Positions 1 to 63,284 of a DNA stretch of 64,000 nt are shown here, piece by piece. This DNA comes from Eshraghiella crossota (GTDB lineage Bacteria; Bacillota; Clostridia; Christensenellales; CAG-917): positions 390 to 64,389 of the forward strand of contig CAVANK010000008.1 in assembly GCA_963590075.1 (NCBI GenBank), given 5' to 3'. How positions within the stretch are numbered: the first letter of the stretch is position 1; each line of letters begins with the position of its first letter. The notes beneath the pieces are model-generated. The model had not been told where the DNA came from. It did no database searches and saw only the letters and a program-made list of their open reading frames with translations. The position numbers and the translations under genes are program-made.

Positions 1-2289
1 GACGGAGTTGGTGAGCATTTCGGGATTTTCTGCCGAGAGTGCTACGAGGTTGACCGCGCCGACTGCAAAGTTGTACATAAATTTGCCGAATCTCGATATT
101 TTGCATTGACCGATTGTGTTGTTTGCGGTCAACTCACCTTTGACAAACGGTGTGTTTTCAATCATCTTTTCACCGTAAATTGCTTCAAATTGCTCGACGG
201 GGATATCTTTTGCGTTTGTGATATCGTAGTAGCAAGGAGCGGTCGCTTTGTAGTCGGGGATAGGTGCGTCGGGATTTTTGGACGTTACGTTCACAGTGCC
301 TTCGAGTTTGATATCGCGAGAGCTTGCGCCCACGAGAATACGGAAATCACCGCTTTCGACGTGCCAATCGTTGATGGATACGTTGTAGTATGCAAACGCA
401 CGCGAGTCAAGCGATACGCTGACCTCTTTTTCTTCACCCGCTTGTAAGAACACTTTCTTGAAGCCTTTGAGTTCCTTTTCGGGACGGTAGAGCGTGCTTT
501 CGACGTCCGCAACGTACACTTGCGCAATTTCCGCGCCCGCGACTTTGCCCGTGTTCTTGACCTTGAACGTGACGGTGAAGTCGTCTCCTTCGTTGATGCT
601 GTCCGCGCTCAATTTGAGGTCGGAATACTCAAACGTGGTGTAGCTCAAGCCGTAACCGAACGGATATTTGACCGCTTTCTTTGCCGTGTCGTAATAGCGG
701 TATCCGACGTAAACGCCTTCGCGATATTCCACCGTGCGAGGGCCCATACGGAAGTATTTTGCGCCGATATAATCTTTTTCGTTGACGGGGAAGGTTTCTG
801 CAAGTTTGCCCGATGGATTGACCTTGCCGTATATGAGGTTGTACGCCGCCTCTCCGCCTGCTTGTCCGCCGAGATAGAGGTTGAGTATGCCTTTTACCCT
901 CTTGTCCCAATCACCGATTTCAACGGGTGAACCGCAAGAAAGCACGACGATGACGTTTTTGTTGACCTTCAAAATCTCGTTGATGAGCGTCACGTGCGAA
1001 GAAGGCATTTTGATGTGACTGCGGTCGTAGCCTTCCGACTCGAACGCGTCCGTCAGACCTATAAACAACAATACCGCGTCTTTGCCTTTTGCCGTCTTGA
1101 CCGCTTGTTTTATGAGGCTCTTCTTGTAGCCTTCGCCTTTGAGGGTATAGCCGTCTGCATAAGCGTATTTTTGACCGGCGTTCTCCAAAGCGTCCGTAAA
1201 CGACGTGATCTTTGTGGGGAGAATGTGGCTCGAACCACCGCCTTGATAGCGGAGTTTCTTTGCAAGTTTGCCGATGACCGCGATGTTCTGTTTTGCGTTC
1301 AAGGGGAGTGCGCCGTCGTTTTTGAGAAGCACCGCTCCGCCTTCCGCCGCGCGTCTTGCGATTGCGTTGTGTTCTTCGATGTCGAACTTTACGCCCTTGA
1401 CTTCGCGCACGGTGTTTTCGTATGCAAATCTTATGAGACGAAGCACCACTTTGTCGATATCCTCAACCGTGAGAGTGCCGTCTTCGAGCGCTTTGTATAC
1501 GCTGGGATCGCTCATGCCTTTGTTGCCCGGCATTTCGAGATCCATACCCGCTTTGACGCCTTCGGGACGGTTATTGACCGCACCCCAGTCGCTCACTACG
1601 ATGCCCTTAAATCCCCACTCGTCACGCAAGACGTCGGTGAGGAAACGCTTATAATCGCTGAGGTACGTGCCGTTGAGACGGTTGTAAGAGCACATAACGG
1701 TGGTGGGCTGTTCCGTCTTGACGATATGCTCGAATGCAGGCATATAAATCTCGCGAAGCGTACGCTCGTCAACTACGGAGTTGATGCACATTCTTATGTA
1801 TTCTTGGTTGTTTGCAAGGAAGTGTTTGAGGGAAGTGCCGACGTTTTTGCTTTGCACGCCGTGTACCCACGCAGCACCCATACGTCCCGCAAGGAAGGGA
1901 TCTTCCGAGAAATACTCGAAGTTTCTTCCGCAAAGCGGACTGCGCTTGATGTTGACGCCGGGGCCGAGAACGGTGGAAACGCCCAAAGATTGCGCTTCGA
2001 CTGCGATTGCCGCACCGACTTCTTGTTCGAGCTCAACGTCCCAACTCGATGCGGACGTAACCGCACCGGGGAAGCAAGTTGCGGGTTCGGGCGTTTGCAT
2101 AATGTTCACGCCACCGGACATTTTTTCGCGACGCATACCGTTGGGGCCGTCGCTCGTGCGCACGGCAGGAATGTCTACGCCGTCTCTCTTGATAGGTTGC
2201 GTAAGCCACGTAGTAGAACCGGAAAGCATTTGCACTTTCTCTTCCAGCGTAAGCTTGGCAAGAATATCCTTATAATCATTCTCGTTCAT
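1..2289 (-). CDS. Glycoside hydrolase family 3 beta-glucosidase (3' end lies beyond the left window edge)
   Basis: Own minus-strand translation: ATG at 2289..2287 after a GGAGGAAAT RBS, open for 763 codons to position 1 (MNENDYKDILAKLTLEEKVQMLSGSTTWLTQP...). Contains the GH3 nucleophile region EWGFKGIVVSDWGAV. Absent from the ORF track because it is open at the edge. The + strand ORFs 994..2355, 1268..1654 and 1781..2275 are antisense shadows. Confidence 0.85.
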   Translation of the reverse strand, partial: MNENDYKDILAKLTLEEKVQMLSGSTTWLTQPIKRDGVDIPAVRTSDGPNGMRREKMSGGVNIMQTPEPATCFPGAVTSASSWDVELEQEVGAAIAVEAQSLGVSTVLGPGVNIKRSPLCGRNFEYFSEDPFLAGRMGAAWVHGVQSKNVGTSLKHFLANNQEYIRMCINSVVDERTLREIYMPAFEHIVKTEQPTTVMCSYNRLNGTYLSDYKRFLTDVLRDEWGFKGIVVSDWGAVNNRPEGVKAGMDLEMPGNKGMSDPSVYKALEDGTLTVEDIDKVVLRLIRFAYENTVREVKGVKFDIEEHNAIARRAAEGGAVLLKNDGALPLNAKQNIAVIGKLAKKLRYQGGGSSHILPTKITSFTDALENAGQKYAYADGYTLKGEGYKKSLIKQAVKTAKGKDAVLLFIGLTDAFESEGYDRSHIKMPSSHVTLINEILKVNKNVIVVLSCGSPVEIGDWDKRVKGILNLYLGGQAGGEAAYNLIYGKVNPSGKLAETFPVNEKDYIGAKYFRMGPRTVEYREGVYVGYRYYDTAKKAVKYPFGYGLSYTTFEYSDLKLSADSINEGDDFTVTFKVKNTGKVAGAEIAQVYVADVESTLYRPEKELKGFKKVFLQAGEEKEVSVSLDSRAFAYYNVSINDWHVESGDFRILVGASSRDIKLEGTVNVTSKNPDAPIPDYKATAPCYYDITNAKDIPVEQFEAIYGEKMIENTPFVKGELTANNTIGQCKISRFGKFMYNFAVGAVNLVALSAENPEMLTNSV

Positions 2290-2547
2290 AATTTCCTCCG
2301 AGTATTAATATTTGTTATATATAGGCAAAGCCCTTATATCGATAATATAGAATAATAACAATTCTTATATATCATTATATCACGCGCGTGGCGTGCTTTC
2401 AAGCATAGATTTTATCGTCTGCAATATGCGTACATCGTGCATATCGTTTGCCGTTTTAATCTTTGTTGAATGTATATGTGTTTTCAATAGTTTTGACGGA
2501 ATAATAGTTTTATCAGCACGAAAACGATTGATGAAAGCACGTTTTCG

Positions 2548-3225
2548 TCATTTATTGAGTTTCGCTTTGTCGCGGGCGGAAAGAGGCGTTTTATCTTCGA
2601 TATACGTTTGCCACACGTTTATGCGGTCGTCTTCGTCTATTTGACGGAGGACTCTGCACGGATTGCCCACTGCAATGCAACGGGGCGGAATATCGCGAGT
2701 GACCACGCTTCCCGCACCTACAACCGCGCCTTCTCCTATCGTGACGCCACCGCAAATAATTACGTTGGAGGCTATCCAAGCGTTCTTTTTGATAGTCACG
2801 GGTTTGGAATATTCGAGGTCGTGATAACCGTCGGGATAGGTGGTGTTTATGCGCTCCTCGGCAATGAACGGGTGACACGGCGTTGCAATCGTTACGTTTG
2901 CGCCGAGCCATACGCCGTCTTCAAGCGTGATGGGAGATATGTCCAAAAGAGTGCAACCGTAGTTGAAAAATATGTCGTTGCCAAGGTGGATATTGACGCC
3001 GTATTCACAGTAAAAAGGTGTGAAAATCCAAGCGGATTTGCCCTTGGACGAGGGGATAAGTTTGTTTATAAGGCGTCGTTGCCTCGGTACGTTCCACACG
3101 GGGCATTTGTTGAGTTTTTGCGTGAGGAGCATACCTCTTGCGTGTCGCCAAAATATGTCTTTGCTTGACGAGTTGTACAATTTGCCGTTTATCATACGTT
3201 GCCATTCGACGTTTATTTTGCTCAT
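2548..3225 (-). CDS. Maltose/galactoside O-acetyltransferase family protein (hexapeptide-repeat)
   Basis: 225 aa. N-terminal Mac-like segment (QRMINGKLYNS), then left-handed beta-helix hexapeptide repeats (GANVTI..., IASNVIICGGVTIGEGAVVGAGSVV). Confidence 0.75.
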   Translation of the reverse strand: MSKINVEWQRMINGKLYNSSSKDIFWRHARGMLLTQKLNKCPVWNVPRQRRLINKLIPSSKGKSAWIFTPFYCEYGVNIHLGNDIFFNYGCTLLDISPITLEDGVWLGANVTIATPCHPFIAEERINTTYPDGYHDLEYSKPVTIKKNAWIASNVIICGGVTIGEGAVVGAGSVVTRDIPPRCIAVGNPCRVLRQIDEDDRINVWQTYIEDKTPLSARDKAKLNK

Positions 3226-3348
3226 ATTTCACCTCATTTTTGATATAATTTTATGTCAAAATAATAATGAATTATATCATAAAAGCGAACAAAATATCAT
3301 AAAAGCGTTGTAAAATACAAAAAGCGTGTTATCATTGAGGGGAAGAGA

Positions 3349-4224
3349 ATGCGAAAATTAATAATTAATAATTGCGGAAGGCGGAGCCTTATCCAAAATA
3401 AATATATAAACGATGTAGGGGAAATAAATCCTAATATGGAAGATAGAAAAAACAATAAGTTGAATATCGAAGTTTTGCCGAAAGGGGTGTCGGCGCCTAA
3501 ATTTCAGCAGAGAGAAAGCGGTGTGGTGCACACACCGTACAGTCGGGAAGTTGCGTTTTACAGTTGCATAAAAAACGGTGATTTGCAAGGGCTTAAAGAT
3601 TGTATGGAAAAGTTTATGTTTGAGTCTCTTGTTGTTGGCAGAATGAGCAACGACAACTTGCGCCAGTCCAAATATATGGCGGTGAGTTGCATTACGCTTG
3701 CCACGCGTTACGCCGTAGAGGGCGGGCTTATGGAAAGCGAAGCGTATAATTTGTCAGACAAGTATATACAAAGCGTGGACAATATGGACGATACGGACGA
3801 TATATTGTATTTCCTTATCGAAAAAGCCGGAGAACTTACGACGCTCGTCAAAGAGCATAAAGACAGACTGGAATATCCGCCGTATATCAGAAAGGCGATA
3901 AAGACCATCGACGCGCATTTGCACGACAAACTTGTGTGCGAAGACATCGCAAAAGAGTGCGGAGTATGCGTGGATTATTTGACCAAGCAGTTCAAAGCGT
4001 ACGTCGGCGTGAGCGTGAAGCGATACGTGCTTTCGCAAAAACTCCAAGCGTCAAAAGAGTTGCTTCTCGACGACGTTCCGTACAAAGACGTTGCGTACTA
4101 TTTCGGCTTCTGCTCGCAAACGCACTATATAAGCGTGTTTGAAAAAGAATACGGAATGACGCCAAAACAATTTGTCGTGGCAAACGCCGAAAAGATAAAT
4201 TCGCCGGATAAAAACGCAAAGTAG
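3349..4224 (+). CDS. AraC-family transcriptional regulator
   Basis: C-terminal double HTH typical of AraC/XylS (CEDIAKECGVCVDYLTKQFKAYVGVSVKRYVLSQKLQASKELL...YYFGFCSQTHYISVFEKEYGMTPKQF). GGGGAAGAG RBS before the ATG. Divergent from the acetyltransferase gene. Confidence 0.8.
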   Translation: MRKLIINNCGRRSLIQNKYINDVGEINPNMEDRKNNKLNIEVLPKGVSAPKFQQRESGVVHTPYSREVAFYSCIKNGDLQGLKDCMEKFMFESLVVGRMSNDNLRQSKYMAVSCITLATRYAVEGGLMESEAYNLSDKYIQSVDNMDDTDDILYFLIEKAGELTTLVKEHKDRLEYPPYIRKAIKTIDAHLHDKLVCEDIAKECGVCVDYLTKQFKAYVGVSVKRYVLSQKLQASKELLLDDVPYKDVAYYFGFCSQTHYISVFEKEYGMTPKQFVVANAEKINSPDKNAK

Positions 4225-5670: not shown

Positions 5671-6384
5671 ATGTGGTCAAACTTGATAAGTATCGACAAA
5701 GGGTATGATAAGGAGATAGGATATATACTTGACAAACTTCAATGCACGAAAGACGTGTCGTACGCAATAGAGGAGTCCGAGGACAGAATGTGGATTTATC
5801 TTGCAAGTGCGTGCGAGTGTGCGGACGAGGTGGAAAGCAAGATTTACGATATACTCGACGTGGTGTTTTTGTCTTTTCTCAAAATGCGTTTTTTTCTCGA
5901 ACGATTGCCGTTTAGAGGGCTTAACCACGCAAAGTGCGCGCTTTTAAGTTCAATGGTAAACTTCGACAGAGATTTTGAAAGCGGTATAATCGCAAAGACG
6001 TTGTCAAACGCGCTTGACTATAACGTTGACGGGCTTTTTAATTTTCGCTTGCGCTCGCTCAAAGAGGCGTGGAGCGAAGTTGCCGACGTTGCTTCGAGAT
6101 TGTTGGAGGGCAGTGGCAGTGATACGGATATATACGATATAGCCTCCTTTATCGCGGGGACGGACGGCGGAAAAAATCAAATATGCGTGGAGCGCAATCG
6201 CCTCAAAAATTTGACGGAAAGACACTTTGTGGAAGTGATTAATCTATTCGATACGGAAGAGTACAATATATTGAGCGCAATCATAAAAGAAAAGCCGTGC
6301 GAAATAGTGATTGAAAACAACTCTTTTTCGACGCCGATGAACTCGACGTTGCGACATATAGCAAGAGTTATCGAAAAATTATAA
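5671..6384 (+). CDS. YtxC-like putative sporulation protein
   Basis: Start moved to ATG 5671 (GAGGTG RBS 5 nt upstream). The VDGLFNFRLRSLKEAW segment resembles the FRFRL signature I recall for the YtxC-like family. No TM segment. The family assignment is from memory. Confidence 0.45.
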   Translation: MWSNLISIDKGYDKEIGYILDKLQCTKDVSYAIEESEDRMWIYLASACECADEVESKIYDILDVVFLSFLKMRFFLERLPFRGLNHAKCALLSSMVNFDRDFESGIIAKTLSNALDYNVDGLFNFRLRSLKEAWSEVADVASRLLEGSGSDTDIYDIASFIAGTDGGKNQICVERNRLKNLTERHFVEVINLFDTEEYNILSAIIKEKPCEIVIENNSFSTPMNSTLRHIARVIEKL

Positions 6385-6549
6385 ATATACGATACGTGTT
6401 GTAAAATCGGGCAAAAACGAGGAAAACTGTCAAAAACGGCTATATTTTGACTAAACAAGAGGGCGAAAAAGCACGAAAAGTGTTATATAATGTCGAAACA
6501 AAACACGATATGTGTATAAGGCAAAACGATATTAAGAAATAAAGGCAAC

Positions 6550-6579
6550 AAAAAAACGGGCAGTTACGCCCGTTTTTTA
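6550..6579. terminator. Bidirectional rho-independent terminator
   Basis: A-run, stem ACGGGC/GCCCGT (6556..6573), then a T-run. Sits between the convergent ytxC-like and serA genes. Confidence 0.8.
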
Positions 6580-6610
6580 GTCATATTAAGTTGTGATCGA
6601 GCGGTTGATA

Positions 6611-7705
6611 TCAATAGACTTTGCGTGCCTTGATCGTGTTTGGCGTGGTGAGCGTTGCAAGGTCAAGTTCGGTATCCGTATCGATTACGGTATAGCGTAT
6701 ACCGTTTCTTACCGCGCTTACTCCGTCAAATTCGGGAGTACCCGTATCGTTTGAGATAACGGTGTAACGGTGCGTTGCCGATTTGGGAACGGACAAATTG
6801 GGCATATTGACGGAATTGACGATATTGCCGTTTTCGATATAGTCTTTGAGTTCCTTGGCAGCCATAACTGCACAGTTGTCTTCCGCCTCTTCTGTAGAAG
6901 CGCCGAGGTGAGGCACTGCGACGATACCTTCGCATCCTATGCAATCGCCGTCCGGGAAATCGACGACGTATTTACGCACTTTTTTGCTTGCAAGCGCGTC
7001 TTTGATTGCCGATACGTCGCAAAGTTCTCCGCGTGCGGCGTTGACGATTATCACGCCGTCTTTCATCGTTGCGATGCTATCGGCGTTGATTAGGTGCTTG
7101 GTGTCGGGCGTCATCGGAAGATGAAGCGTGACGAAGTCCGCGTTTTGCCAAGCGTTTTTCATATCGTCGAAAATTGTTACGAAGGGTATTTCTTCCTTTG
7201 CGGATTGCGAGATGAAGGGATCGTAACCTACGACGTTCATACCGAGAGCGTGCGCCGAGATTGCAACTTTTCTGCCTATCGCGCCAAGTCCCAAAACACA
7301 AAGTGTTTTGCCTGCTATCTCGTTGCCCGCAAACGCGCTCTTGCCTTTTTCCACTTGTTTTGCGACGTCGTCGCCCGTGATGGTGTTTGCCCAATTGCTT
7401 GCCTCAACGACGTTTCTTGCACCGATAATGAGGTATGCGATTACGAGTTCCTTAACCGCGTTGGCGTTTGCGCCGGGGGTATTAAACACGCAAATACCTT
7501 TCTTTGCGTAGTCCGCGTGCGGAATATTGTTGACGCCCGCGCCCGCTCTCGCAACTGCAAGAAGGGAAGAGGGCACTTGATATTCCTCCATTTTGAAAGA
7601 GCGCACGAGTATGCCGACGGGATCGGCGCAATTATCCGTAACGGTGTAGCCTTCGAGCACGGGATTTGCAAGTTTTGATATGGAATTGAGTTTGAGAATA
7701 TTCAT
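6611..7705 (-). CDS. serA: D-3-phosphoglycerate dehydrogenase (D-2-hydroxyacid dehydrogenase family)
   Basis: 364 aa. NAD-binding GLGAIGRKVA fingerprint. Lies directly downstream of serC in the same orientation. Confidence 0.8.
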   Translation of the reverse strand: MNILKLNSISKLANPVLEGYTVTDNCADPVGILVRSFKMEEYQVPSSLLAVARAGAGVNNIPHADYAKKGICVFNTPGANANAVKELVIAYLIIGARNVVEASNWANTITGDDVAKQVEKGKSAFAGNEIAGKTLCVLGLGAIGRKVAISAHALGMNVVGYDPFISQSAKEEIPFVTIFDDMKNAWQNADFVTLHLPMTPDTKHLINADSIATMKDGVIIVNAARGELCDVSAIKDALASKKVRKYVVDFPDGDCIGCEGIVAVPHLGASTEEAEDNCAVMAAKELKDYIENGNIVNSVNMPNLSVPKSATHRYTVISNDTGTPEFDGVSAVRNGIRYTVIDTDTELDLATLTTPNTIKARKVY

Positions 7706-9008: not shown

Positions 9009-10652
9009 ATGGCAAAAAATACGAAAACGGTTAAAGTTACCTTCCTCGGCGGCGTCGGTGAAATCGGCAAGAATATGACCGTCTTGGAATACGGCAACGA
9101 TATGATAATCGTGGACTGCGGAGTGGCTTTCCCCAAAGAGGACAGCCCCGGCATCGACGCGATTATCCCCGACATCACTTACATCAAAGAAAATATAGCA
9201 AGACTTCGCGGTATCGTGCTTACGCACGGTCACGAAGACCACATCGGCGCGATTCCTTATTACGCCGACGACCTCAAAGACGTGCCTATCTACGGCACCG
9301 CGCTCACTGTCGGACTTCTTAAACGCAAGCTCGACAAGCAAGGCAAAAAGTGCAACCTCGTGACTATTTCGGCGGGGGATACTGTGTCTTTGGGAGAATT
9401 CCGCGTGGAATTTATCAAAGTGGCGCACTCTATGGCGGGTGCTTGCGCACTCAATATCACTTGCCCCGTCGGCAACGTGTTCGTGACGGGTGACTTCAAG
9501 ATCGACAACACGCCCATCGACGGCAAAAAGACGGATATCGGACGCATTGCGGAAATAGGCGCGAAGGGCGTTTTGCTTATGCTCGGAGAGTCCACCAACG
9601 TAGAAAGAGCGGGCAGTTCCACTTCGGAAAAAGTCGTCGGACAAAATTTGGAACAAATTTTCGTCGCAAACCCCAACAAACGCATAGTTATCGCGTGCTT
9701 TGCATCGTCAAACTACCGCGTGCAACAAGTGCTTTCGCTTGCGCATAAGTATCATAGAAAAGTGGTGCTTGCGGGAAGAAGCATGAAAGGCATCGTGGAC
9801 GTTGCGTCCGCTTGCGGTGAATTGCAAGTGCCAAAGGGCGTACTCGTCGACAGCGTGGGAAGATTGCTCCCCAGCGAAACCGTCGTGCTTGCAACCGGCT
9901 CGCAAGGTGAACCGCTCAGCGCACTCAACAAACTCTCAAAAGGTGAATTCAACAAAATCAACCTCGGCACGGACGACGTGGTGGTGCTCAGTTCTTCGCC
10001 TATCCCGGGCAACGAGAAATCCGTCTACGACGTCATCAACGACTTGTTCAGAAAGGGCGCAAACGTCATTTACGACAGTATGAACGACATTCACGTGTCG
10101 GGACACGCTTACGCCGAGGAATTGAAGCTTATGCTTACCCTCGTACACCCGCAGTTCTTTATGCCCGTGCACGGTGAGTATCGTCATCAATTCAAGCACG
10201 CCGAAATCGCAAAATCACTTGGCGTGGCAAGCAAAAATATCGTCATTCCCAACATTGGCGAGTGCTACGGCGTAAATCAAAAGGGTATACGCCAACACTC
10301 CAACGTCGCGTCGGGCAACACATACGTGGACGGCGTCGTGCTCGAAGACGGAAAATCCGTCGTCAACGACCGTCGCTCGCTTGCCGAATACGGTATGCTT
10401 TTGGTGCTTTGCGCGGTGGATATGGATCTCGGCAAAATCTCGGGTGACGTGGACGTCGTGGCAAGAGGCTTCAACCTCACCGACGACGTGCGCTCGTCCA
10501 TAGAAAACGCAACCAAAGACGCGATAAATTCCGTCGATTTCGATAAGACAGACATCAACGAAATCGCTCGCATAGTCAAAAAGGCTGTGAGAAAACTCTT
10601 TTACAAGGATAGACAATTCCCGATTATCATTCCCGTTATCGTAGAGGACTGA
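9009..10652 (+). CDS. rnj: Ribonuclease J (metallo-beta-lactamase/beta-CASP)
   Basis: 547 aa. HGHEDHIGA metal motif, beta-CASP region and C-terminal domain, with the typical N-terminus VKVTFLGGVGEIGKNMTVLEY. Confidence 0.9.
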   Translation: MAKNTKTVKVTFLGGVGEIGKNMTVLEYGNDMIIVDCGVAFPKEDSPGIDAIIPDITYIKENIARLRGIVLTHGHEDHIGAIPYYADDLKDVPIYGTALTVGLLKRKLDKQGKKCNLVTISAGDTVSLGEFRVEFIKVAHSMAGACALNITCPVGNVFVTGDFKIDNTPIDGKKTDIGRIAEIGAKGVLLMLGESTNVERAGSSTSEKVVGQNLEQIFVANPNKRIVIACFASSNYRVQQVLSLAHKYHRKVVLAGRSMKGIVDVASACGELQVPKGVLVDSVGRLLPSETVVLATGSQGEPLSALNKLSKGEFNKINLGTDDVVVLSSSPIPGNEKSVYDVINDLFRKGANVIYDSMNDIHVSGHAYAEELKLMLTLVHPQFFMPVHGEYRHQFKHAEIAKSLGVASKNIVIPNIGECYGVNQKGIRQHSNVASGNTYVDGVVLEDGKSVVNDRRSLAEYGMLLVLCAVDMDLGKISGDVDVVARGFNLTDDVRSSIENATKDAINSVDFDKTDINEIARIVKKAVRKLFYKDRQFPIIIPVIVED

Positions 10653-27773: not shown

Positions 27774-27962
27774 AGAGGTGCGATAAACTTAAAATCTGAT
27801 AAGAAAGACCTTTTACTTCGGTAACAGGTGCATTTTTCGCGTTACATAGCTTTCTTATCAGACATAGCATGTGGGTTTATCGCAAAAATCAGCGGGGATG
27901 CACTTGTTATATTTTTACTAGATCATTTGAAAATCCCTGCAATACAAACTGCGAGGGAGAGC

Positions 27963-30900
27963 ATGAGAGCCCACAAAAAGCAACGTATATTTATCATTTT
28001 AGCCATTTTGACAATGGCGGTCATTTTGACGTGCATTTTTGCCGCTTGCGACAAAACCGGTGCGCAAGACAAAAATTATACTGTCACCATACATCCAAAC
28101 AACGGACAACCCGATATCGTTTGGGATGTCGCCACTGACATTCCGTCCATAACGAAATATGGATATCACATTGTCGGTTTTTATCTTGACGAGGGGATGA
28201 CAACAAGCACAACGCTTGAATCCTTGAAGTCATCCGAACTGACAAGCAATTTGGACGTATATGTCAAATGGGAAAAGGATAGTGTGCCGCCAAAAACCAA
28301 AATCAGCACAAACAAATTGCTTTGCGATTACGATACTAGAACTTTAAGCGGAAAGGTGTCCAATTCAACGACAGTATTTTCGTTTAGCGATGAGATTTCC
28401 GTTGAAAAAGGTGCAACATACACTGTTTCGACCGATATTACCGGAATCAACGTGATTCCGAGCAAAACTGTGAATCTTGAGATTGGCGATAATGTTTTTT
28501 ACATTGTAGTTTCAAACGAAGATGAGCTCACGTTGTATACAGCGACAGTGCGTCGCAGACCGATATATGAAGTCGTTTTTAACGTAAAAGGCGGAACGGA
28601 AGTCGAAGCGCAACAGGTTGAAGAAGATGATTTCGCAACTGCGCCAACTACTGAAAAAAACGGTTGCACATTTGAAAGGTGGGATTGGGATTTTGCAACA
28701 TCGATTACTAAAAACACAACCATAACAGCAATTTGGAATGCTTTTACATATAATATCATTTACGACTTGAATATTCCCGAGGATTCTGTAAGCCAAGATG
28801 TTGACAACTCAAGGAATCCGACAACATACACCGTTGATGATACGATATATTTTTCTGCGCCTAGACGAAACGGTTATTATTTTACCGGTTGGAGTGTGGA
28901 CAGAATTGTTAAAGGCACAACGGGAACGGTAAAGACGACAGCGCAATGGAGTCCGATTACCTATGAAATTATATATGATTTTGGTGATTCCAAATCGGTA
29001 AGCAAGGCGACAAACAGCGATTTGAATCTAAGGTATTATAATATCGAGAGCGAAATCACATTCGCTGAACCAACAAGAGCCGGTTATTCGTTTGTATCTT
29101 GGGACAAGAATATTGCAAAAGGTACAACCGGTACGCAAATAATAACTGCAAGTTGGAGTGTTATCGATTACGATATTGTGTACAATTTTGGTGATACTTC
29201 TTCTGCCAGCAAAGCCATAAACAATGAACTAAATCCAGCAACTTATACTGTTGAGGACGAAATTGTATTCGCCGAACCAACAAGAACAGGATATGAATTC
29301 TTATCTTGGGACAAGAACATTGTAAAAGGCATGACTAATGAACAAACTATAACTGCTAGCTGGTCAATTATCGATTATGACATCATTTACGACCTTGGCG
29401 ATGCTGATTCCGTAAGTAAGGCTACCAACAACGATTCAAACCCGACAACGTATACCATTGAGGACGAAATCATTTTTGAAACCCCTACAAGGCAGTATTA
29501 TGAGTTTGTTGAATGGAGTAAAAACATTTCAAAAGGTAGCGTCGGTAACCAAAATGTTGTTGCGGTATGGAAAGCTGAAACACATACGATAACATATGTG
29601 TTGAACAATTGGACGAATGTCGCCGACAACAAAAATACATATACAATTGAAGATCAAACATTTGCTTTGTTCGATGGCGTAAAAGGAGAAAGTCTTTTCT
29701 GTGGATGGTATCTAGATGATGAGTACACGAATTACATCGAAACGATAGATGCATCATCAATGAAGGATTACATTGTTTATGCAATGCCGGATTGTGGTGC
29801 TACAAAGGGATTATCTATTGAAAACGGTGTTGTAAAAAGCTATTCAGGTACATCAACAAATGTTGTTATCCCGTCTTATTACAAAGGCTACGCTGTTGTG
29901 AGCATTGTCAAAGCTGTTTTCAATAATTGCACAAATTTGACGAGCGTGACAATCCCCGACAGCGTGACAAGCGTTGGTAGTTCTGCATTTTCCGGTTGCA
30001 CGGGATTGACAAAAATAACAGGGCCTTCCGACATGGTTTCCACTGTTGCAAAACAGTGCAACAGCACGGCGGTTGAGGAGATTGTTATAACAAGCGGAAC
30101 AAGCATCGGTTATGATGCCTTCTCTGGTTGCAGTGGTTTAACAAGCGCCACAATTTCGGATAGTGTGACGAGCATCGGTTATTATGCTTTCTCAGGTTGC
30201 GACAAACTTCAGAACATATATATAGCTGACATGGTGGCATGGTGCAATATTTCAGGATTAGATGATTTGATGGAATATGGATCAAGCAACAAGAATTTGT
30301 ACCTTGACAATGAACTTGTTACATCGGTTTCAATCCCTAACGAAGTAACCACCATCCCGTCTTATGCTTTTTATGGTTGTGAGAGTATTGTAAATGTAAT
30401 TATTCCCGACACCGTAACGAGTGTTGGCAATTATGCATTCTCTGGCTGCACTAACCTTCAAAATATATACATTGCTGACATAGTGGCGTGGTGCAATATT
30501 TCAGGGTTGAATTGGTTGATGGAATATGGTACAAGCAACAAAAATTTATATCTAAACAATGAACTTGTTACATCGGTTACAATTCCTCTCAGTGTGACAA
30601 GCATCGGCAGGTCTGCATTTAATGGGTGTAGCAGTCTGACGAGTATCACGATTCCAGACACAGTGACGAGTGTTGGTAGTTCTGCATTTTCCGGTTGCAC
30701 GGGATTGACAAAAATAACAGGACCTTCCGACATGGTTTCCACTGTTGCAAAACAGTGCAACAGCAAGGTGCTTGAGATTGTTATAACAAGCGGAACAAGC
30801 ATCGGCTCTTCTGCCTTCTCTGGTTGCAGTGGTTTAACAAGCGTCACAATTTCGGATAGTGTGACGAGCATCGGCTCTTATGCATTCTCAGGGTGCACCG

Positions 30901-32147
30901 GTTTGATGAGCGTCACAATCCCGGACGGTGTGACGAGTATTGGCGATTACGCTTTTCGTGATAGCAGCAGTTTAACAACAGTCACATGGAATGCAATTGC
31001 GTGTGCAACTGTTGGATCTTCATATTCTTCTGTTTTTTCAGGGTGTTCTAACCTTGCTATTGTGAACATTGGAAATAATGTAACTATTATTCCGTCCTAT
31101 GTCTTTTATAATTGTAACGGTTTGACGAGCATTACAATTTCGGATAGTGTGACGAGCATCGGCTCTTATGCATTCTCAGGGTGCACCGGTTTGATGAGCG
31201 TCACAATCCCGGACGGAGTGACGAGTATTGGCGATTCTGCCTTCTCAAACTGCAGTGGATTGACGAGTGTCACAATTGGCAACAGTGTGATGAGCATCGG
31301 TGAGAATGCATTTTTGGGTTGCTGGCGACTGATTGAAGTGTACAACAAATCGTCGTTGACGATAATAGCCGATAGCAACGATAACGGGCGTGTCGCATCT
31401 AATGCAAAAAATGTGTATACGGACACAGAAGGCGAAAGCAAACTTTCAAATGACAACGGTTATGTTGTATATACTGACGGGACAGAAAAGATTTTAGTGG
31501 CGTATACCGGCACTGAGACTGAATTGTCATTGCCATCATATATAACCCAAATCAACGAGTTCGCATTCTATGAATGTGCCGAGTTGACATTCATAACAAT
31601 CCCGAACAGCGTAAAGAGCATTGGCTATTCCGCCTTTTCAAGTTGCACGGGGTTGACAAGCATCACAATCCCTAACAGTGTGACGAGCATTGGTGGTTCT
31701 GCTTTCTCTGGTTGTATCGGACTCACAAGCATTATTGTTGAAAAGGGAAATCTTAACTATCATAGCGACGGCAATTGCTTGATTGCAACCGCAACCAAAA
31801 CACTGATTTTGGGTTGCCAAAACAGTGTCATCCCTTCCGATGGTAGTGTGACGAGCATCGAAAGTTATGCCTTCCAGTATTGTGGCGACTTGACAAGCAT
31901 CATTATTCCGGACGGCGTGACGAGCATCGGCGGTTTGGCCTTCTATAGATGCACTGACTTGACAAACATCACTATCCCCGACAGCGTAACCAACATTGGC
32001 TATGGTGCTTTCCGAAACTGTAGCGGACTGACAAACATTAATTTTGAAGGCACAAAAGAACAATGGAATGCAATCACAAAAGGCGATAATTGGAACGATG
32101 GTGTCGCAACCAACTGCACAATTACTTGTTCCGACGGAACGATATAA
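27963..32147 (+). CDS. Large surface lipoprotein: Listeria-Bacteroides (Flg_new) repeats followed by BspA-type leucine-rich repeats
   Basis: Start moved to ATG 27963 (GAGGGAGAGC RBS), giving MRAHKKQRIFIILAILTMAVILTCIFAAC, a signal peptide with a lipobox-like FAAC. Repeated GY.F..W...I.KGTTG....A.W modules are followed by more than 25 copies of the roughly 23-aa L.S..IP.SVTSIG..AF.GC..L repeat. Confidence 0.85.
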   Translation: MRAHKKQRIFIILAILTMAVILTCIFAACDKTGAQDKNYTVTIHPNNGQPDIVWDVATDIPSITKYGYHIVGFYLDEGMTTSTTLESLKSSELTSNLDVYVKWEKDSVPPKTKISTNKLLCDYDTRTLSGKVSNSTTVFSFSDEISVEKGATYTVSTDITGINVIPSKTVNLEIGDNVFYIVVSNEDELTLYTATVRRRPIYEVVFNVKGGTEVEAQQVEEDDFATAPTTEKNGCTFERWDWDFATSITKNTTITAIWNAFTYNIIYDLNIPEDSVSQDVDNSRNPTTYTVDDTIYFSAPRRNGYYFTGWSVDRIVKGTTGTVKTTAQWSPITYEIIYDFGDSKSVSKATNSDLNLRYYNIESEITFAEPTRAGYSFVSWDKNIAKGTTGTQIITASWSVIDYDIVYNFGDTSSASKAINNELNPATYTVEDEIVFAEPTRTGYEFLSWDKNIVKGMTNEQTITASWSIIDYDIIYDLGDADSVSKATNNDSNPTTYTIEDEIIFETPTRQYYEFVEWSKNISKGSVGNQNVVAVWKAETHTITYVLNNWTNVADNKNTYTIEDQTFALFDGVKGESLFCGWYLDDEYTNYIETIDASSMKDYIVYAMPDCGATKGLSIENGVVKSYSGTSTNVVIPSYYKGYAVVSIVKAVFNNCTNLTSVTIPDSVTSVGSSAFSGCTGLTKITGPSDMVSTVAKQCNSTAVEEIVITSGTSIGYDAFSGCSGLTSATISDSVTSIGYYAFSGCDKLQNIYIADMVAWCNISGLDDLMEYGSSNKNLYLDNELVTSVSIPNEVTTIPSYAFYGCESIVNVIIPDTVTSVGNYAFSGCTNLQNIYIADIVAWCNISGLNWLMEYGTSNKNLYLNNELVTSVTIPLSVTSIGRSAFNGCSSLTSITIPDTVTSVGSSAFSGCTGLTKITGPSDMVSTVAKQCNSKVLEIVITSGTSIGSSAFSGCSGLTSVTISDSVTSIGSYAFSGCTGLMSVTIPDGVTSIGDYAFRDSSSLTTVTWNAIACATVGSSYSSVFSGCSNLAIVNIGNNVTIIPSYVFYNCNGLTSITISDSVTSIGSYAFSGCTGLMSVTIPDGVTSIGDSAFSNCSGLTSVTIGNSVMSIGENAFLGCWRLIEVYNKSSLTIIADSNDNGRVASNAKNVYTDTEGESKLSNDNGYVVYTDGTEKILVAYTGTETELSLPSYITQINEFAFYECAELTFITIPNSVKSIGYSAFSSCTGLTSITIPNSVTSIGGSAFSGCIGLTSIIVEKGNLNYHSDGNCLIATATKTLILGCQNSVIPSDGSVTSIESYAFQYCGDLTSIIIPDGVTSIGGLAFYRCTDLTNITIPDSVTNIGYGAFRNCSGLTNINFEGTKEQWNAITKGDNWNDGVATNCTITCSDGTI
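29973..30865 (+). repeat. In-frame direct repeat pair inside the LRR gene, 699-nt period
   Basis: 29973..30066 matches 30672..30765 with one mismatch over 94 nt. The match continues with small gaps to 30178 and 30865. Confidence 0.85.
30846..31236 (+). repeat. In-frame direct repeat pair inside the LRR gene, 288-nt period
   Basis: 30846..30948 matches 31134..31236: 103 nt with a single mismatch (GGACGGTGTG versus GGACGGAGTG). Confidence 0.9.
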
Positions 32148-42356: not shown

Positions 42357-42482
42357 AGCAAAGACCGTTGCACATATAATGATATATTTTTATCGTGAAC
42401 AATTCACAAGAGCGCATAGTTAAGTCCTTTGGTATTGACAAGATATACTGTTGTGATATAATCGAGTTTAATGGGGGAAAAT

Positions 42483-60088: not shown

Positions 60089-61423
60089 ATGATTGCGTCG
60101 ATAGTTCTCGGGGCGGTGGCGGTCGTAGGGACGATTGCCTCCATAATATTTTTGCCGGAAGTGAATGTTAAGGATAGGCGAGTGCCTATATTTTGGCTAC
60201 CCGCTTTTGCGTGCGCAATCGTACTTTTGAGCATTGGCGCGTTGCCCATCAAGGACGCGATGCAAGGGCTTGCGGGGGATATGCTTTCGATGTTCGAGGG
60301 CAGAGTGAGCGTCAATCCCGTCAAGATACTTTTGCTGTTTTTCGGTATGACTGCGATATCCGTATTTTTGGACGAGGCGGGCGTGTTTCGCTACCTTGCG
60401 ACCAAGTCCGCAAAGCTTGCGGGAAGCAGTCAAAAGAAACTGTTTTTCATACTGTACGCGGTGGTATCGATTTTGACGGTTTTCACCTCAAACGATATCA
60501 TTATCCTCACGTTTACGCCGTTTATCTGCTATTTTTGCAAAAACGCCAAGATTTCGCCTATTCCGTATTTGGTGTCGGAATTCGTTGCCGCCAACACTTT
60601 TTCGATGATATTTATCATAGGCAATCCCACCAATATTTACCTTGCGGAAAACTACGGAATCACCTTCGGAAGGTACTTTGAAGTTATGGCTTTGCCGACG
60701 ATTTTGGGCGGATTTACCGCACTGGGAGTGCTGTATCTCATATTCAAAAACAAACTGAAAGAGGCAATCGAAGTCGGCGATTTTCAAGACGCGACGATAG
60801 AGAAAAAACCGCTTGCGATATTCGGCGCAAGCGTGCTGGGCGTATGTCTCGTATTGTTGGTGATATCCGATTATATAGGCGTTGAAATGTGGGCGTTTGC
60901 GGTGCTTGCACTGGTGGTGCTCGTCGTGGGGTGTCTTATAATTTGCGCAGTGAAAAAGGAAAAACCGATTGAACTCGGACGCACTTTTGCGCGCCTTCCG
61001 TACGAGCTTATTCCGTTCGTGGTGTCTATGTTTATAATCGTGCTTGCGCTCAAACGCAACGGCGTTGCGGACGAGATCGCAAACGTATTTGCAAAGGCGG
61101 GGAGCAACTTTGACATCTTGACGTACGGCGTGTCGTCAACGCTTGCTGCAAACCTTATAAACAACATTCCGATGAGCGTGCTCTATTCCGTCATCACACA
61201 AAACGCCTCGCCGTTTGCGGTGTACGCGTCCGTAGTCGGCTCGAATATCGGTGCGTTTTTGACGCCCGTAGGCGCGCTTGCGGGCATAATGTTTACGGGG
61301 CTTTTGAAGTCGCTTGACGTCAAGTTTTCTTTTTTGGATTTTTCAAAGCACGGCGTAACGGTTGCAATCCCCACGCTTTTTGCCACGCTTGCGGGACTTT
61401 ATATAATGCAAGCAATTATGTGA
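60089..61423 (+). CDS. ArsB/NhaD-superfamily anion permease
   Basis: 444 aa, more than 10 TM segments. Duplicated signature segments IIGNPTNIYL and LINNIPMSVL, as in ArsB/NhaD/CitMHS-type permeases. Confidence 0.65.
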   Translation: MIASIVLGAVAVVGTIASIIFLPEVNVKDRRVPIFWLPAFACAIVLLSIGALPIKDAMQGLAGDMLSMFEGRVSVNPVKILLLFFGMTAISVFLDEAGVFRYLATKSAKLAGSSQKKLFFILYAVVSILTVFTSNDIIILTFTPFICYFCKNAKISPIPYLVSEFVAANTFSMIFIIGNPTNIYLAENYGITFGRYFEVMALPTILGGFTALGVLYLIFKNKLKEAIEVGDFQDATIEKKPLAIFGASVLGVCLVLLVISDYIGVEMWAFAVLALVVLVVGCLIICAVKKEKPIELGRTFARLPYELIPFVVSMFIIVLALKRNGVADEIANVFAKAGSNFDILTYGVSSTLAANLINNIPMSVLYSVITQNASPFAVYASVVGSNIGAFLTPVGALAGIMFTGLLKSLDVKFSFLDFSKHGVTVAIPTLFATLAGLYIMQAIM

Positions 61424-61444
61424 AAAAGCGCAAGCATATCGGGG

Positions 61445-61535
61445 AGTGATATTGCGACTTTGTCGCAGTGATATTCTCGCTATGCGAGAGTGATATTTTT
61501 GGCTTGTGCCAAAAGTGATATTCGCACTTCGTGCG
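61445..61535 (+). repeat. Array of 4 AGTGATATT motifs alternating with 4 different short hairpins (3' UTR of the permease gene)
   Basis: AGTGATATT at 61445, 61467, 61489 and 61514. Intervening hairpins are GCGA-CTTTG-TCGC, CTCGC-TAT-GCGAG, TTTGGC-TTGT-GCCAAA and CGCAC-TTC-GTGCG. Confidence 0.8.
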
Positions 61536-61558
61536 AGTTGTGGAGTATTCTATAAATC

Positions 61559-61591
61559 AAAAAAAACACTGTCCGTTCTGGCAGTGTTTTG
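61559..61591. terminator. Bidirectional rho-independent terminator
   Basis: A-run, AAAACACTG / CAGTGTTTT stem with a 10-nt loop, then a T-run. Sits between the convergent permease and sdaA genes. Confidence 0.8.
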
Positions 61592-61612
61592 TATTATCGT
61601 TTGATTGATTAT

Positions 61613-62848
61613 TTATTTTCTCTTCAAGTGTTTGGAGTGGCGGAGGCGGGAGTGGCGATAACTTTTTGCAAGTCCGCCGCCTGACGTTTCGCGATAGCGC
61701 ACGTTGATGTCTTTGCCCGTTTGGTACATAGTTTCCACCACGGCGTCAAAGGAGATTTGGCGTGAGTTGGTGAGGAAGTTGGCAAGCGACACGGCGTTGA
61801 TTGCGCGCATTGCCGCAACTGCGTTGCGCTCTATACAAGGTATTTGCACAAGACCTTCGACGGGATCGCAAGTGAGTCCGAGATGGTGCTCCATTGCAAC
61901 TTCTGCGGAGTACTCGATTTGGTCAAAGTCCATTCCGAAAAGTTGCGCAAGTGACGCCGCCGCCATAGAACACGCCGTACCGCATTCCGCTTGGCAACCG
62001 CATTCCGCACCGCTTATTGAAGCGTTGGTCTTGACGATGTTGCCTATGATACCCGCTGTGCAAAGCGCGTCGATTATATCGTCGTTGGTGAATGAGTGTG
62101 TCTCTTGCTCGTAGCGAAGCACTGCGGGCACGATACCGCACGAACCGCACGTCGGGGCGGTTACGATGATTTCGCCCGCGGCGTTTTGCTCGCTCACGGC
62201 AAAGGCGTACGCGCATACGAGACGGTTTTCTTTGGTCTGCGGAGTTTCGTCAATGTGGCGTTGTTGATAGAGAATTTTGGCTCTGCGCTCTGTGTTGAGA
62301 CCGCCGGGAAGCACACCGCTTGCTTTGAGACCTTGTTTAATGGCGTTTTTCATCGCTTCCCAAATCTCTGCAAGGTAGGTACGTATCTCAGCGCCCTCAA
62401 AGCGTTCTACGTATTGAGGAATGGTAATTTCCTCATTGTCGCAATATTCGCGGATTTGCTCGAAAGTATGGTGAGGATATACGTCCTCCGGCTCTATCGA
62501 ACTTTCACCCTCGACCTCGATTGCACCGCCACCCACGCTGTAAACGCGCCACGAGTCTATGACTTTGCCGTTTAAGTCGTATGCAAACAAGTCCATAGTA
62601 TTGGGGTGCGGGAGGTGAGTGTTTTCAAAATCGAAAACGACGTCCACGGGCTTGGTAAACGTCTTTTTGAGTACGACGTCCGTGCCGTGACCTTTTCCGG
62701 TCTTTGCCAAAGAACCGTAAAGCACGGCCTTGAAAGAAAGCGCGTTTTTGTTGCGCTCGGAAAAGAGTTTCGCGGCTTTTTCGGGGCCCATAGTGTGGGA
62801 ACTCGACGGTCCGCGTCCGATTTTGTACAATTCGGTGAGGCTTTTCAT
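61613..62848 (-). CDS. sdaA: L-serine dehydratase, iron-sulfur dependent, single-chain form
   Basis: N-terminus MKSLTELYKIGRGPSSSHTMGP. Cys cluster region (APTCGSCGIVPA) and GAECGCQAECG. Confidence 0.85.
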   Translation of the reverse strand: MKSLTELYKIGRGPSSSHTMGPEKAAKLFSERNKNALSFKAVLYGSLAKTGKGHGTDVVLKKTFTKPVDVVFDFENTHLPHPNTMDLFAYDLNGKVIDSWRVYSVGGGAIEVEGESSIEPEDVYPHHTFEQIREYCDNEEITIPQYVERFEGAEIRTYLAEIWEAMKNAIKQGLKASGVLPGGLNTERRAKILYQQRHIDETPQTKENRLVCAYAFAVSEQNAAGEIIVTAPTCGSCGIVPAVLRYEQETHSFTNDDIIDALCTAGIIGNIVKTNASISGAECGCQAECGTACSMAAASLAQLFGMDFDQIEYSAEVAMEHHLGLTCDPVEGLVQIPCIERNAVAAMRAINAVSLANFLTNSRQISFDAVVETMYQTGKDINVRYRETSGGGLAKSYRHSRLRHSKHLKRK

Positions 62849-63284
62849 TGGTTACTCCTTATATCGAGGGTATTATAGCACAACTTGCGTTTTTATCAAC
62901 GCTTTGAGAGCGATAAAGGCGCATAAAATCGCAAAATATTTTTGCGCATACCCCTCAACGATTTGCCAAGCGTATAAAAAGTGTGCTAATATATCACAGT
63001 TTTAAGAGCAAAAATCGTCGCTGTGGCAACGGCAACACGCAAGTGTGCGCATTGCCTTAGCCACGCTGGATTTATTGCTCTTACTAACCGCGCAACCGAT
63101 ACACGCTATCGGTTCAAGCACGGGCAAAAACTCATACCACAGTTTCGCTATATCGCTTGCTTGGTGGGGCGCACTTCGTGCTTGTAATGTCATCGGTAGA
63201 AATGCAATTCGGGATTGTTCAAATATATTAGTGCAAAATAGTGGCAACATACATACGAAAAAATCATCGAAAGAAGGTTCGATT

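Follow-up and report, generated by a model that had tools for sequence, protein, structure and literature searches.

A probable Gut-1-type dispersed repeat of constant linkers and variable hairpins in the 3′ UTR of a permease gene

An array of four constant linkers and four different hairpins, closed by a conserved tail, was analysed at positions 61445-61555 of a 64-kb stretch of DNA (the whole stretch is referred to as the window). The array is real, non-random and structured. Its identity as a dispersed repeat of the Gut-1 family (RF01706) is held with high confidence. The best explanation, to which we assign a probability of about 0.6, is that the array is a copy of a dispersed mosaic repeat of palindromic units, similar to REP/BIME or BOX elements, and not a regulator that evolved for the neighbouring permease gene. 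The mechanistic part of this explanation is much less certain than the Gut-1 identity. The repeat is roughly 110 nt long, with on the order of 100 copies per genome in some gut Clostridia. Gut-1 has been an orphan 'ncRNA' since 2010 and was previously known from metagenomes only. Its arrays are now placed in named lineages (MAGs titled Christensenella, Oscillospiraceae and Acutalibacteraceae, and one Akkermansia), its ends and unit grammar are defined as those of a dispersed, modular and fast-turning-over repeat, and its function is now testable in cultivable relatives. For annotation, Gut-1-type repeat is the appropriate label for the feature, in place of gene-specific regulatory RNA.

The array and its place between two convergent genes

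The 9-mer AGTGATATT occurs on the + strand at 61445, 61467, 61489 and 61514, with periods of 22, 22 and 25 nt, exactly as the earlier note had reported. Five copies were counted in the 64-kb window against 0.39 expected, and none of 100 shuffles reached five. The fifth copy, at 9453 on the - strand, lies within a long open reading frame and looks like a chance occurrence. The four intervals are perfect hairpins of different sequence, as had been described from the letters and as both sequence and folding confirmed. Linker 1 (61445..61453) forms the sharp 5′ edge of the element and is followed by hairpin 1 (61454..61466; GCGAC-TTT-GTCGC), whose module 'tgcgac' was found in 23 units of other arrays. 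Linkers 2 (61467..61475), 3 (61489..61497) and 4 (61514..61522) match the 9-mer exactly and precede, respectively, hairpin 2 (61476..61488; CTCGC-TAT-GCGAG; 'tctcgc', the commonest module with 36 units), hairpin 3 (61498..61513; TTTGGC-TTGT-GCCAAA; 'ttttggc', 22 units, usually the second-to-last hairpin) and hairpin 4 (61523..61535; CGCAC-TTC-GTGCG; 'tcgcac', 32 units, usually the last hairpin), all on the + strand. The 3′ edge is formed by a family tail (61536..61555, +), which reads AGTTGTGGAGTATTCTATAA in the window against a consensus of AGTTGTGGAATATTCCAWAT and is a degenerate form of the family's palindrome. What had been taken for a degenerate fifth unit is this conserved tail.

Folding of positions 61440-61558 returned the same four hairpins for the + strand RNA (-43.5 kcal/mol, z = -4.8), the - strand RNA (-31.3 kcal/mol, z = -5.4) and single-stranded DNA (-23.3 kcal/mol, z = -5.9). 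At the RNA level, A-U, U·G and U-A pairs between the AUU end of a linker and the AGU start of the following one can lengthen each helix, so that only GAU of the linker would be left unpaired. The proposal of a single-stranded linker therefore holds for GAU, whereas the linker ends can join the helix bases and are not necessarily unpaired.

The array begins 22 nt past the stop codon of an ArsB/NhaD/CitMHS-family permease gene (60089..61423, +; PF03600, 9.8e-43; PF02040, 7.3e-27) and thus lies in the permease 3′ UTR. The convergent gene on the other side (61613..62848, -) encodes an L-serine dehydratase with alpha and beta domains (PF03313, PF03315). Between them, about 4 nt beyond the end of the element and outside the repeat, lies a hairpin with an A-tract, a 7-11 bp stem and a T-tract (61559..61595), as predicted by RNA folds. 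It is presumed to act as a bidirectional intrinsic terminator common to the permease and serine dehydratase genes. The placement of the array between the permease stop (61423) and this hairpin, as previously described, was correct. The hairpin did not appear in the list of a consensus terminator scan, which scored hairpin 2 with the following ATATTTTT as terminator-like. Judged from its position upstream of the presumed terminator, the array must be co-transcribed with the permease mRNA.

The core GTGATAT was also surveyed elsewhere in the window, where 17 other copies were found against about 6.5 expected for the whole window. These copies are mostly promoters of the TGnTATAAT type. Of the copies at 2377(-), 14505(+), 27564(-), 40366(+), 42453(+), 59832(-) and 62991(-), several lie between genes and have the form of extended -10 promoters, such as TTGACA-N18-(G)TGATATAAT at 42453, and they are unrelated to the array. 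An extended -10 identity was considered for the array linkers themselves and rejected, as these do not end in a good -10 sequence and the idea is at odds with the GTGAAAT variants. Elsewhere in the window, a 1439-aa open reading frame (27828-32147) contains tandem DNA repeats at 30181-31312 with periods of 69 and 249 nt and therefore probably encodes a repeat-rich, surface-type protein.

Relation to Gut-1 and distribution of the family

An Rfam search had been proposed in the earlier note, which knew of no described motif with this organisation. The search was run, and such a motif proved to exist: the best match of the array, obtained by an E-value scan of a 1.1-kb region, was Gut-1 (RF01706), at 34.8 bits and E = 8.3e-5, and Gut-1 has exactly this organisation. 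The score lies below the Gut-1 gathering threshold of 50 bits, as does that of the orthologous array in locus L251, and the whole 64-kb window returned no match in Rfam gathering mode. CRISPR, snoRNA and other Rfam families gave weak sub-threshold matches only. Gut-1 was published from human-gut sequences with no sequenced organism and was classed as a probable non-coding RNA (Weinberg et al. 2010, PMC2864571). Its Rfam type is 'Gene; sRNA'. No function for Gut-1 was found in the literature, where nothing was found beyond the 2010 paper.

In the Gut-1 consensus, GUGAAAU links hairpins of variable sequence, whose helices have an A-U/U·G base and are set apart by a 3-nt spacer. The 2010 seed alignment also holds GUGAUAU variants and a forward array followed by a reverse array. 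The window array shares the architecture of at least three consecutive variable-stem hairpins with a GUGAWAU linker and an A-U/U·G base; in both, the stems covary, the linker is constant with 3-nt GAW unpaired, a tail beginning AGUUG follows the last hairpin, and the organisms are from the gut only. Two differences were noted. The window array has four hairpins and a tail compared with three hairpins in the model, and Rfam treats Gut-1 as an independent sRNA, whereas the arrays described here form a dispersed repeat without a conserved promoter of its own.

Homology was supported from both directions. Close relatives of the window array exceeded the Gut-1 threshold (L061, 50.3 bits; L070, 52.7 bits), and the L061 array is 82% identical to the window array over 111 nt. 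Arrays of L267, L298 and L252 also passed, as did many others from the genome scan, and that of L019 did not. Conversely, a covariance model built from window-type arrays detected both halves of accepted Gut-1 members at 35-74 bits. Because of this homology and the common architecture, the window copy is regarded as a sub-threshold Gut-1 member. Only 4 of about 20 arrays from eight metagenome loci passed the threshold, and the Rfam model overlooks most Christensenellales copies.

The distribution of the family was determined by pattern scans of genomes and metagenomes. A genome scan covering one genome per species (three GTGAWATT with 10-20 nt gaps) gave at least 118 loci, and the matches listed came nearly all from gut or rumen Clostridia MAGs, titled Oscillospiraceae, Acutalibacteraceae, Christensenellaceae/Christensenella, 'Eubacteriales' or 'Clostridia'; also among the matches listed were one Akkermansia MAG and a few plain tandem repeats in other taxa. 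L019 and L070 (Christensenella sp. MAGs) and L061 have a design nearly identical to that of the window array, including individual hairpins and the tail AGTTGTGGAATATTC. A complete metagenome scan with the exact pattern GTGATATT-N-GTGATATT-N-AGTTGTGGA gave 78 arrays in 75 human-gut loci. One assembly, ERZ808278 (11-17x coverage), contributed 26 of these on 13 contigs, and another, ERZ780149, contributed 14.

The covariance search of related genomes and metagenomes that the earlier note had suggested was also performed, and many related arrays were found. The model from window-type arrays detected about 21 further arrays in about 541 kb around the seeds, a density of roughly one array per 25 kb in Christensenellales-like gut genomes as estimated from these seed-centred loci. 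Single contigs of 13-14 kb carry three arrays each. In the 64-kb window itself, the same model with filters off found no second copy, only the array and its palindromic echo on the other strand. In the Akkermansia sp. MAG (L002), at least nine arrays were observed on one strand within 8 kb (1976-3450 and 5857-7062), in largely non-coding DNA with tandem units of 439 nt and 198 nt. Their linkers are GTGAAATT and a different constant linker, (A/G)CGAGATT, and the tail begins with the same AGTTGT.

The contexts of the arrays varied. Arrays were found after canonical terminators, directly after stop codons and beside a divergent gene start, and the flanking proteins of 58-60 genome-scan loci (58 proteins) formed almost no clusters, on which grounds an association with particular genes was rejected. 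According to rough gene calls based on open reading frames, the assignable neighbours were convergent in 11 cases, tandem-antisense in 12, tandem-sense in 5 and divergent in 3, and the coding share on the array's strand averaged 0.49 by the same calls. No sense-strand preference was detected, relative either to the neighbours or to the majority coding strand. The family thus shows the many copies in unrelated intergenic regions that mark REP/BIME repeats. The earlier note had set its own reading against a dispersed REP-type repeat with no strand bias, and the latter is essentially what was found.

Anatomy of the family and turnover at orthologous loci

The element is discrete, about 110 bp long and sharp-ended. 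Across 83 arrays, information reached about 2 bits within the linker and was about zero beyond the A immediately 5′ of the first GTGATATT, and therefore no conserved promoter lies upstream of the arrays. At the 3′ edge, information fell to about zero from 11-12 nt after AGTTGTGGA. A 12-nt palindrome, TGGAATATTCCA, is part of the conserved 20-nt tail (consensus AGTTGTGGAATATTCCAWAT). AT-rich simple repeats of the TTATTAATTATTAATTAATAA type often adjoin the arrays, after the tail in L256, L263, L305, L310, L314, L316 and L070 and before the array in L041 and L085.

Four linkers were present in 57 of 75 arrays, and linker periods varied between 18 and 30 bp, most often 22 or 25 bp. These periods bear on whether the linkers serve as double-stranded DNA sites, phased on one helix face, that bind a nucleoid protein or transcription factor and act as an insulator or titrator; the spacing had been noted before as fitting phased sites about two helical turns apart. 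With the variation observed, a constant helix face is not kept, and this explanation is considered very unlikely. The conserved 9-mer and the 12-bp palindromic tail would suit it, as would the strand symmetry of the stems and the tails of some copies (L060 at 2495-2608, L262 and L266/L279) that read TGTGGATAA, a perfect reverse match to the DnaA-box consensus TTATCCACA, although this match may be a coincidence. However, duplex sites give no reason for perfect but variable palindromes between them, and the tail of the window copy is a degenerate palindrome.

The hairpins are drawn from about 14 stem modules, all of which occur within one assembly and whose order varies between copies, while the 9-mer linker and the tail are constant. 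For the analysis of pairing, forward arrays were aligned by the model; a MAFFT alignment slips by whole units. In 150 arrays, 95.5% of pair cells were standard pairs, compared with 67% in shuffles and at most 56% with slid partners, and both sides changed in 29 of 33 pairs, which bears out the earlier claim that the spacers keep the ability to pair and not their sequence. The closing pairs of the first three helices were AU in 138-146 and UG in 140-143 of the arrays, with fewer in the fourth helix. Internal stems were 92.9% Watson-Crick, with G·U (1.7%) no commoner than A·C (1.8%). This is how DNA palindromes behave, and the stems offer no evidence of selection on one RNA strand; in a family of perfect palindromes covariation alone is no proof of RNA function. 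Two features do distinguish the strands. The T·G pair in the linker-derived helix base is nearly invariant, and the loops are T-rich on the AGTGATATT strand (TTT 52 versus AAA 15, TTC 42 versus GAA 4, TTGC 17 versus GCAA 0), although these counts are not independent, since the copies share common ancestry.

The family usually takes a larger, two-armed form of about 170 nt in Oscillospiraceae and Acutalibacteraceae MAGs, as found by the genome pattern scan at L009 (1555-1725), L025 (1944-2115), L039, L011 and about 70 other loci among the matches listed. Its forward arm has short stems and is separated from the reverse arm by an AT-rich centre, GGCGAATATAATATCAC; the arms are always convergent. 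In about 80% of cases, a co-directional gene ends in a long terminator-like hairpin directly before the forward arm, and a sigma-70-like promoter is often found no more than 10 nt from the far end. An 11-nt pairing joins the first linker to the centre, and its one variable position clearly covaries (AT 27, TA 17, CG 8), which is the best hint that at least the two-armed form folds as a single strand. A long-range pairing between forward and reverse linkers was also considered and was rejected, as its changes are uncompensated (GTTATAT versus ATATCAC).

Comparison of orthologous loci revealed turnover of whole elements. Locus L251, an orthologue of the window locus with about 93% identity across 3.1 kb, keeps the array, with changes in two loops only (the hairpin 1 loop is TTC), and also keeps the hairpin that corresponds to 61559-61595. 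In L119, the permease and serine dehydratase genes are separated by an unrelated 117-nt spacer without an array, and its flanks are 96-97.6% identical to those of L251. The same permease/serine-dehydratase locus in L120-L123 has no array. A locus-specific regulatory role of the array is therefore not supported. Absence of conservation at homologous loci, which the earlier note had named as telling against its reading, was found in part, since L251 retains the array and L119-L123 are without it. The difference between L251 and L119 is a block replacement of the whole intergenic region, terminator included, and the comparison of these two loci gave no clean filled-versus-empty junction. A second insertion polymorphism of the same neighbourhood is found in the next intergenic region, between the divergent serine dehydratase and BipA genes, where L251 (7939-8045) has a Gut-1 array with a further repeat, element B, the window has a different repeat (63008-63186), and the more distant L120 and L121 have neither. 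Finally, L305 and L316 carry orthologous arrays that differ by a whole hairpin module.

Several further observations were made in this neighbourhood. Element B is a second dispersed repeat, which in the window occupies 63010-63200, between the serine dehydratase start and the next gene. This stretch gave 26 BLAST matches in 18 of the fetched loci and no Rfam match. A related element B unit of about 83 nt (..TTCGCTACGCTGGATTCCCACGGTCACTTCGTTCCCTCGGAATGAC..GGTGGGACACCCACACCCGA..) gave 41 matches in 28 loci and often stands directly after Gut-1 tails, in either orientation. About 2.2 kb upstream of the permease gene, L251 carries a tmRNA gene (2202-2565, 139.8 bits). Upstream of 59928, the window shows no homology to L251, so that synteny breaks at this point.

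The arrays might alternatively form a functional structured RNA, in which GAU/AGUGAUAUU sites at the hairpin bases are offered to an RNA-binding protein or another RNA (as a sponge, scaffold or chaperone platform) and many copies jointly titrate a factor. We consider this unlikely. Strong hairpin covariation, the nearly invariant A-U, U·G, U-A helix base (in which U·G corresponds to a C·A mismatch on the other strand), the strand-asymmetric loops, the conservation of the linker across distant taxa, the fairly fixed architecture of four units and the covarying 11-bp long-range helix of the larger Oscillospiraceae form would all be expected of such an RNA. However, the stems lack enrichment of G·U over A·C, and about 100 copies with shuffled modules would be unusual for an sRNA gene. 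The sponge or titrator and sRNA interpretations are further weakened because no conserved promoter stands upstream, because arrays lie sense, antisense, after terminators or beside divergent starts with no sense preference, and because the array is dispensable at the orthologous locus. For the locus-specific form of this idea, a sponge or titrator in the permease 3′ UTR as originally proposed, no support was obtained, given that relatives lack the array at the same locus, that the contexts are unrelated, that tandem arrays are sense in 5 and antisense in 12 cases and that no promoter is conserved.

A 3′-end module selected at the permease locus, which would stabilise the mRNA against 3′-to-5′ exonucleases or supply back-up terminators that shield the serine dehydratase gene, is decidedly unlikely. 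The position between stop codon and terminator and the terminator-like score of hairpin 2 agree with such a role. So do the many members directly after stop codons or terminators and the 14 of 65 larger, two-armed elements (among the matches listed) that follow the ends of tRNA or rRNA operons, and E. coli REP elements do stabilise upstream mRNA. Nevertheless, the orthologues manage without the array, other arrays stand beside divergent starts or antisense to both neighbours, and the conserved linker and tail would be left unexplained.

The discrete ends, fairly constant length, multiple copies and insertion polymorphism also recall a classical MITE, which a DDE transposase would recognise by its inverted-repeat-like ends (AGTGATATT ... 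AATATTCC) and move by cut and paste. The two ends are indeed alike in inverted orientation (GTGATATT versus GGAATATT), but the inversion is loose, and at no offset did a target-site duplication of 2-5 bp rise above shuffled controls. No clean empty site was seen between L251 and L119. BLAST of the array against plasmid and phage collections returned nothing, and only 1 of 120 pattern matches in viral contigs was a true hairpin array, on which grounds a phage or plasmid origin was also rejected. A MITE is accordingly regarded as highly improbable. In 2.5 Mb around the arrays, tblastn with approximate sequences of an IS608 TnpA and an E. coli RAYT gave one weak match, 7 kb from an array.

The dispersed mosaic repeat is preferred over these alternatives. 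Under this explanation, copies would be gained, lost and homogenised at the DNA level, possibly through recombination or gene conversion between identical linkers and through template-switch correction of the palindromes, and a factor that recognises the 9-mer beside a hairpin of any sequence may be involved. At the permease locus, the element would be passively co-transcribed at the mRNA end, and its four stable hairpins could have at most a generic effect, by impeding 3′ exonucleases or read-through. Several findings stand against the dispersed-repeat explanation. The T·G helix base, the T-rich loops and the preference for four linkers point to one functional strand, the stems differ from those of REPs in following no single consensus within a genome, and no mobilising enzyme (in the 2.5 Mb around arrays), target-site duplication or clean junction was found. 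In addition, the conservation of the linker across families of Clostridia and an Akkermansia MAG suggests a conserved binding partner, which could be an RNA-binding protein. A speculative extension, which we hold to be doubtful, is that Gut-1 arrays are the substrates of a new recognition system in gut Clostridia and some Akkermansia, in which a protein reads one strand, as RNA or single-stranded DNA, by the 9-mer and an adjoining hairpin of arbitrary sequence. Such a protein might either spread the arrays, with REP-like mobility but without a RAYT or target duplication, or use about 100 copies as genome-wide 3′-end or insulator signals.

Likeness to known repeat and RNA systems

A constant repeat alternating with variable spacers is a feature that the array has in common with CRISPR. 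However, its repeat is 9 nt long instead of about 24-40 nt, and its 'spacers' are palindromes of 13-16 nt from a small common repertoire. The Rfam scan gave no significant match to a CRISPR family, and its sole CRISPR-DR match was weak and lay outside the array. The repeated presentation of a short motif between or on hairpins is likewise found in sponge RNAs of the CsrB/RsmZ type, which are single, promoter-driven genes with GGA motifs mostly in loops. The arrays have no GGA repeat and no conserved promoter, and they differ from these RNAs in comprising about 100 copies in either orientation, with the motif between hairpins, at the helix bases.

The closest resemblances are to dispersed intergenic repeats. 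In enterobacteria and pseudomonads, REP/BIME elements consist of short palindromic units, each flanked by a conserved asymmetric sequence, that are located between genes and often at gene 3′ ends. They form mosaic clusters that include units in opposite orientation, vary between strains and fold into hairpins when transcribed. The Gut-1-type arrays are similarly dispersed, intergenic, palindromic, mosaic and variable between relatives. REP stems have one or few consensus sequences per genome, whereas the arrays combine about 14 variable modules with a constant linker. The arrays are also fewer than REP, at about 10^2 copies, and whereas REP is tied to the RAYT transposase, the 2.5 Mb searched around arrays with approximate queries gave the single weak tblastn match described above. 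BOX elements of Streptococcus pneumoniae are built as boxA-boxB(n)-boxC from modules of 45-59 nt with conserved sequence. The arrays have shorter units of 20-26 nt in which the linker alone is conserved; like BOX, they are structured, multi-copy intergenic repeats of Firmicutes with no identified mobilising enzyme, composed of a modular head, repeated units and a tail.
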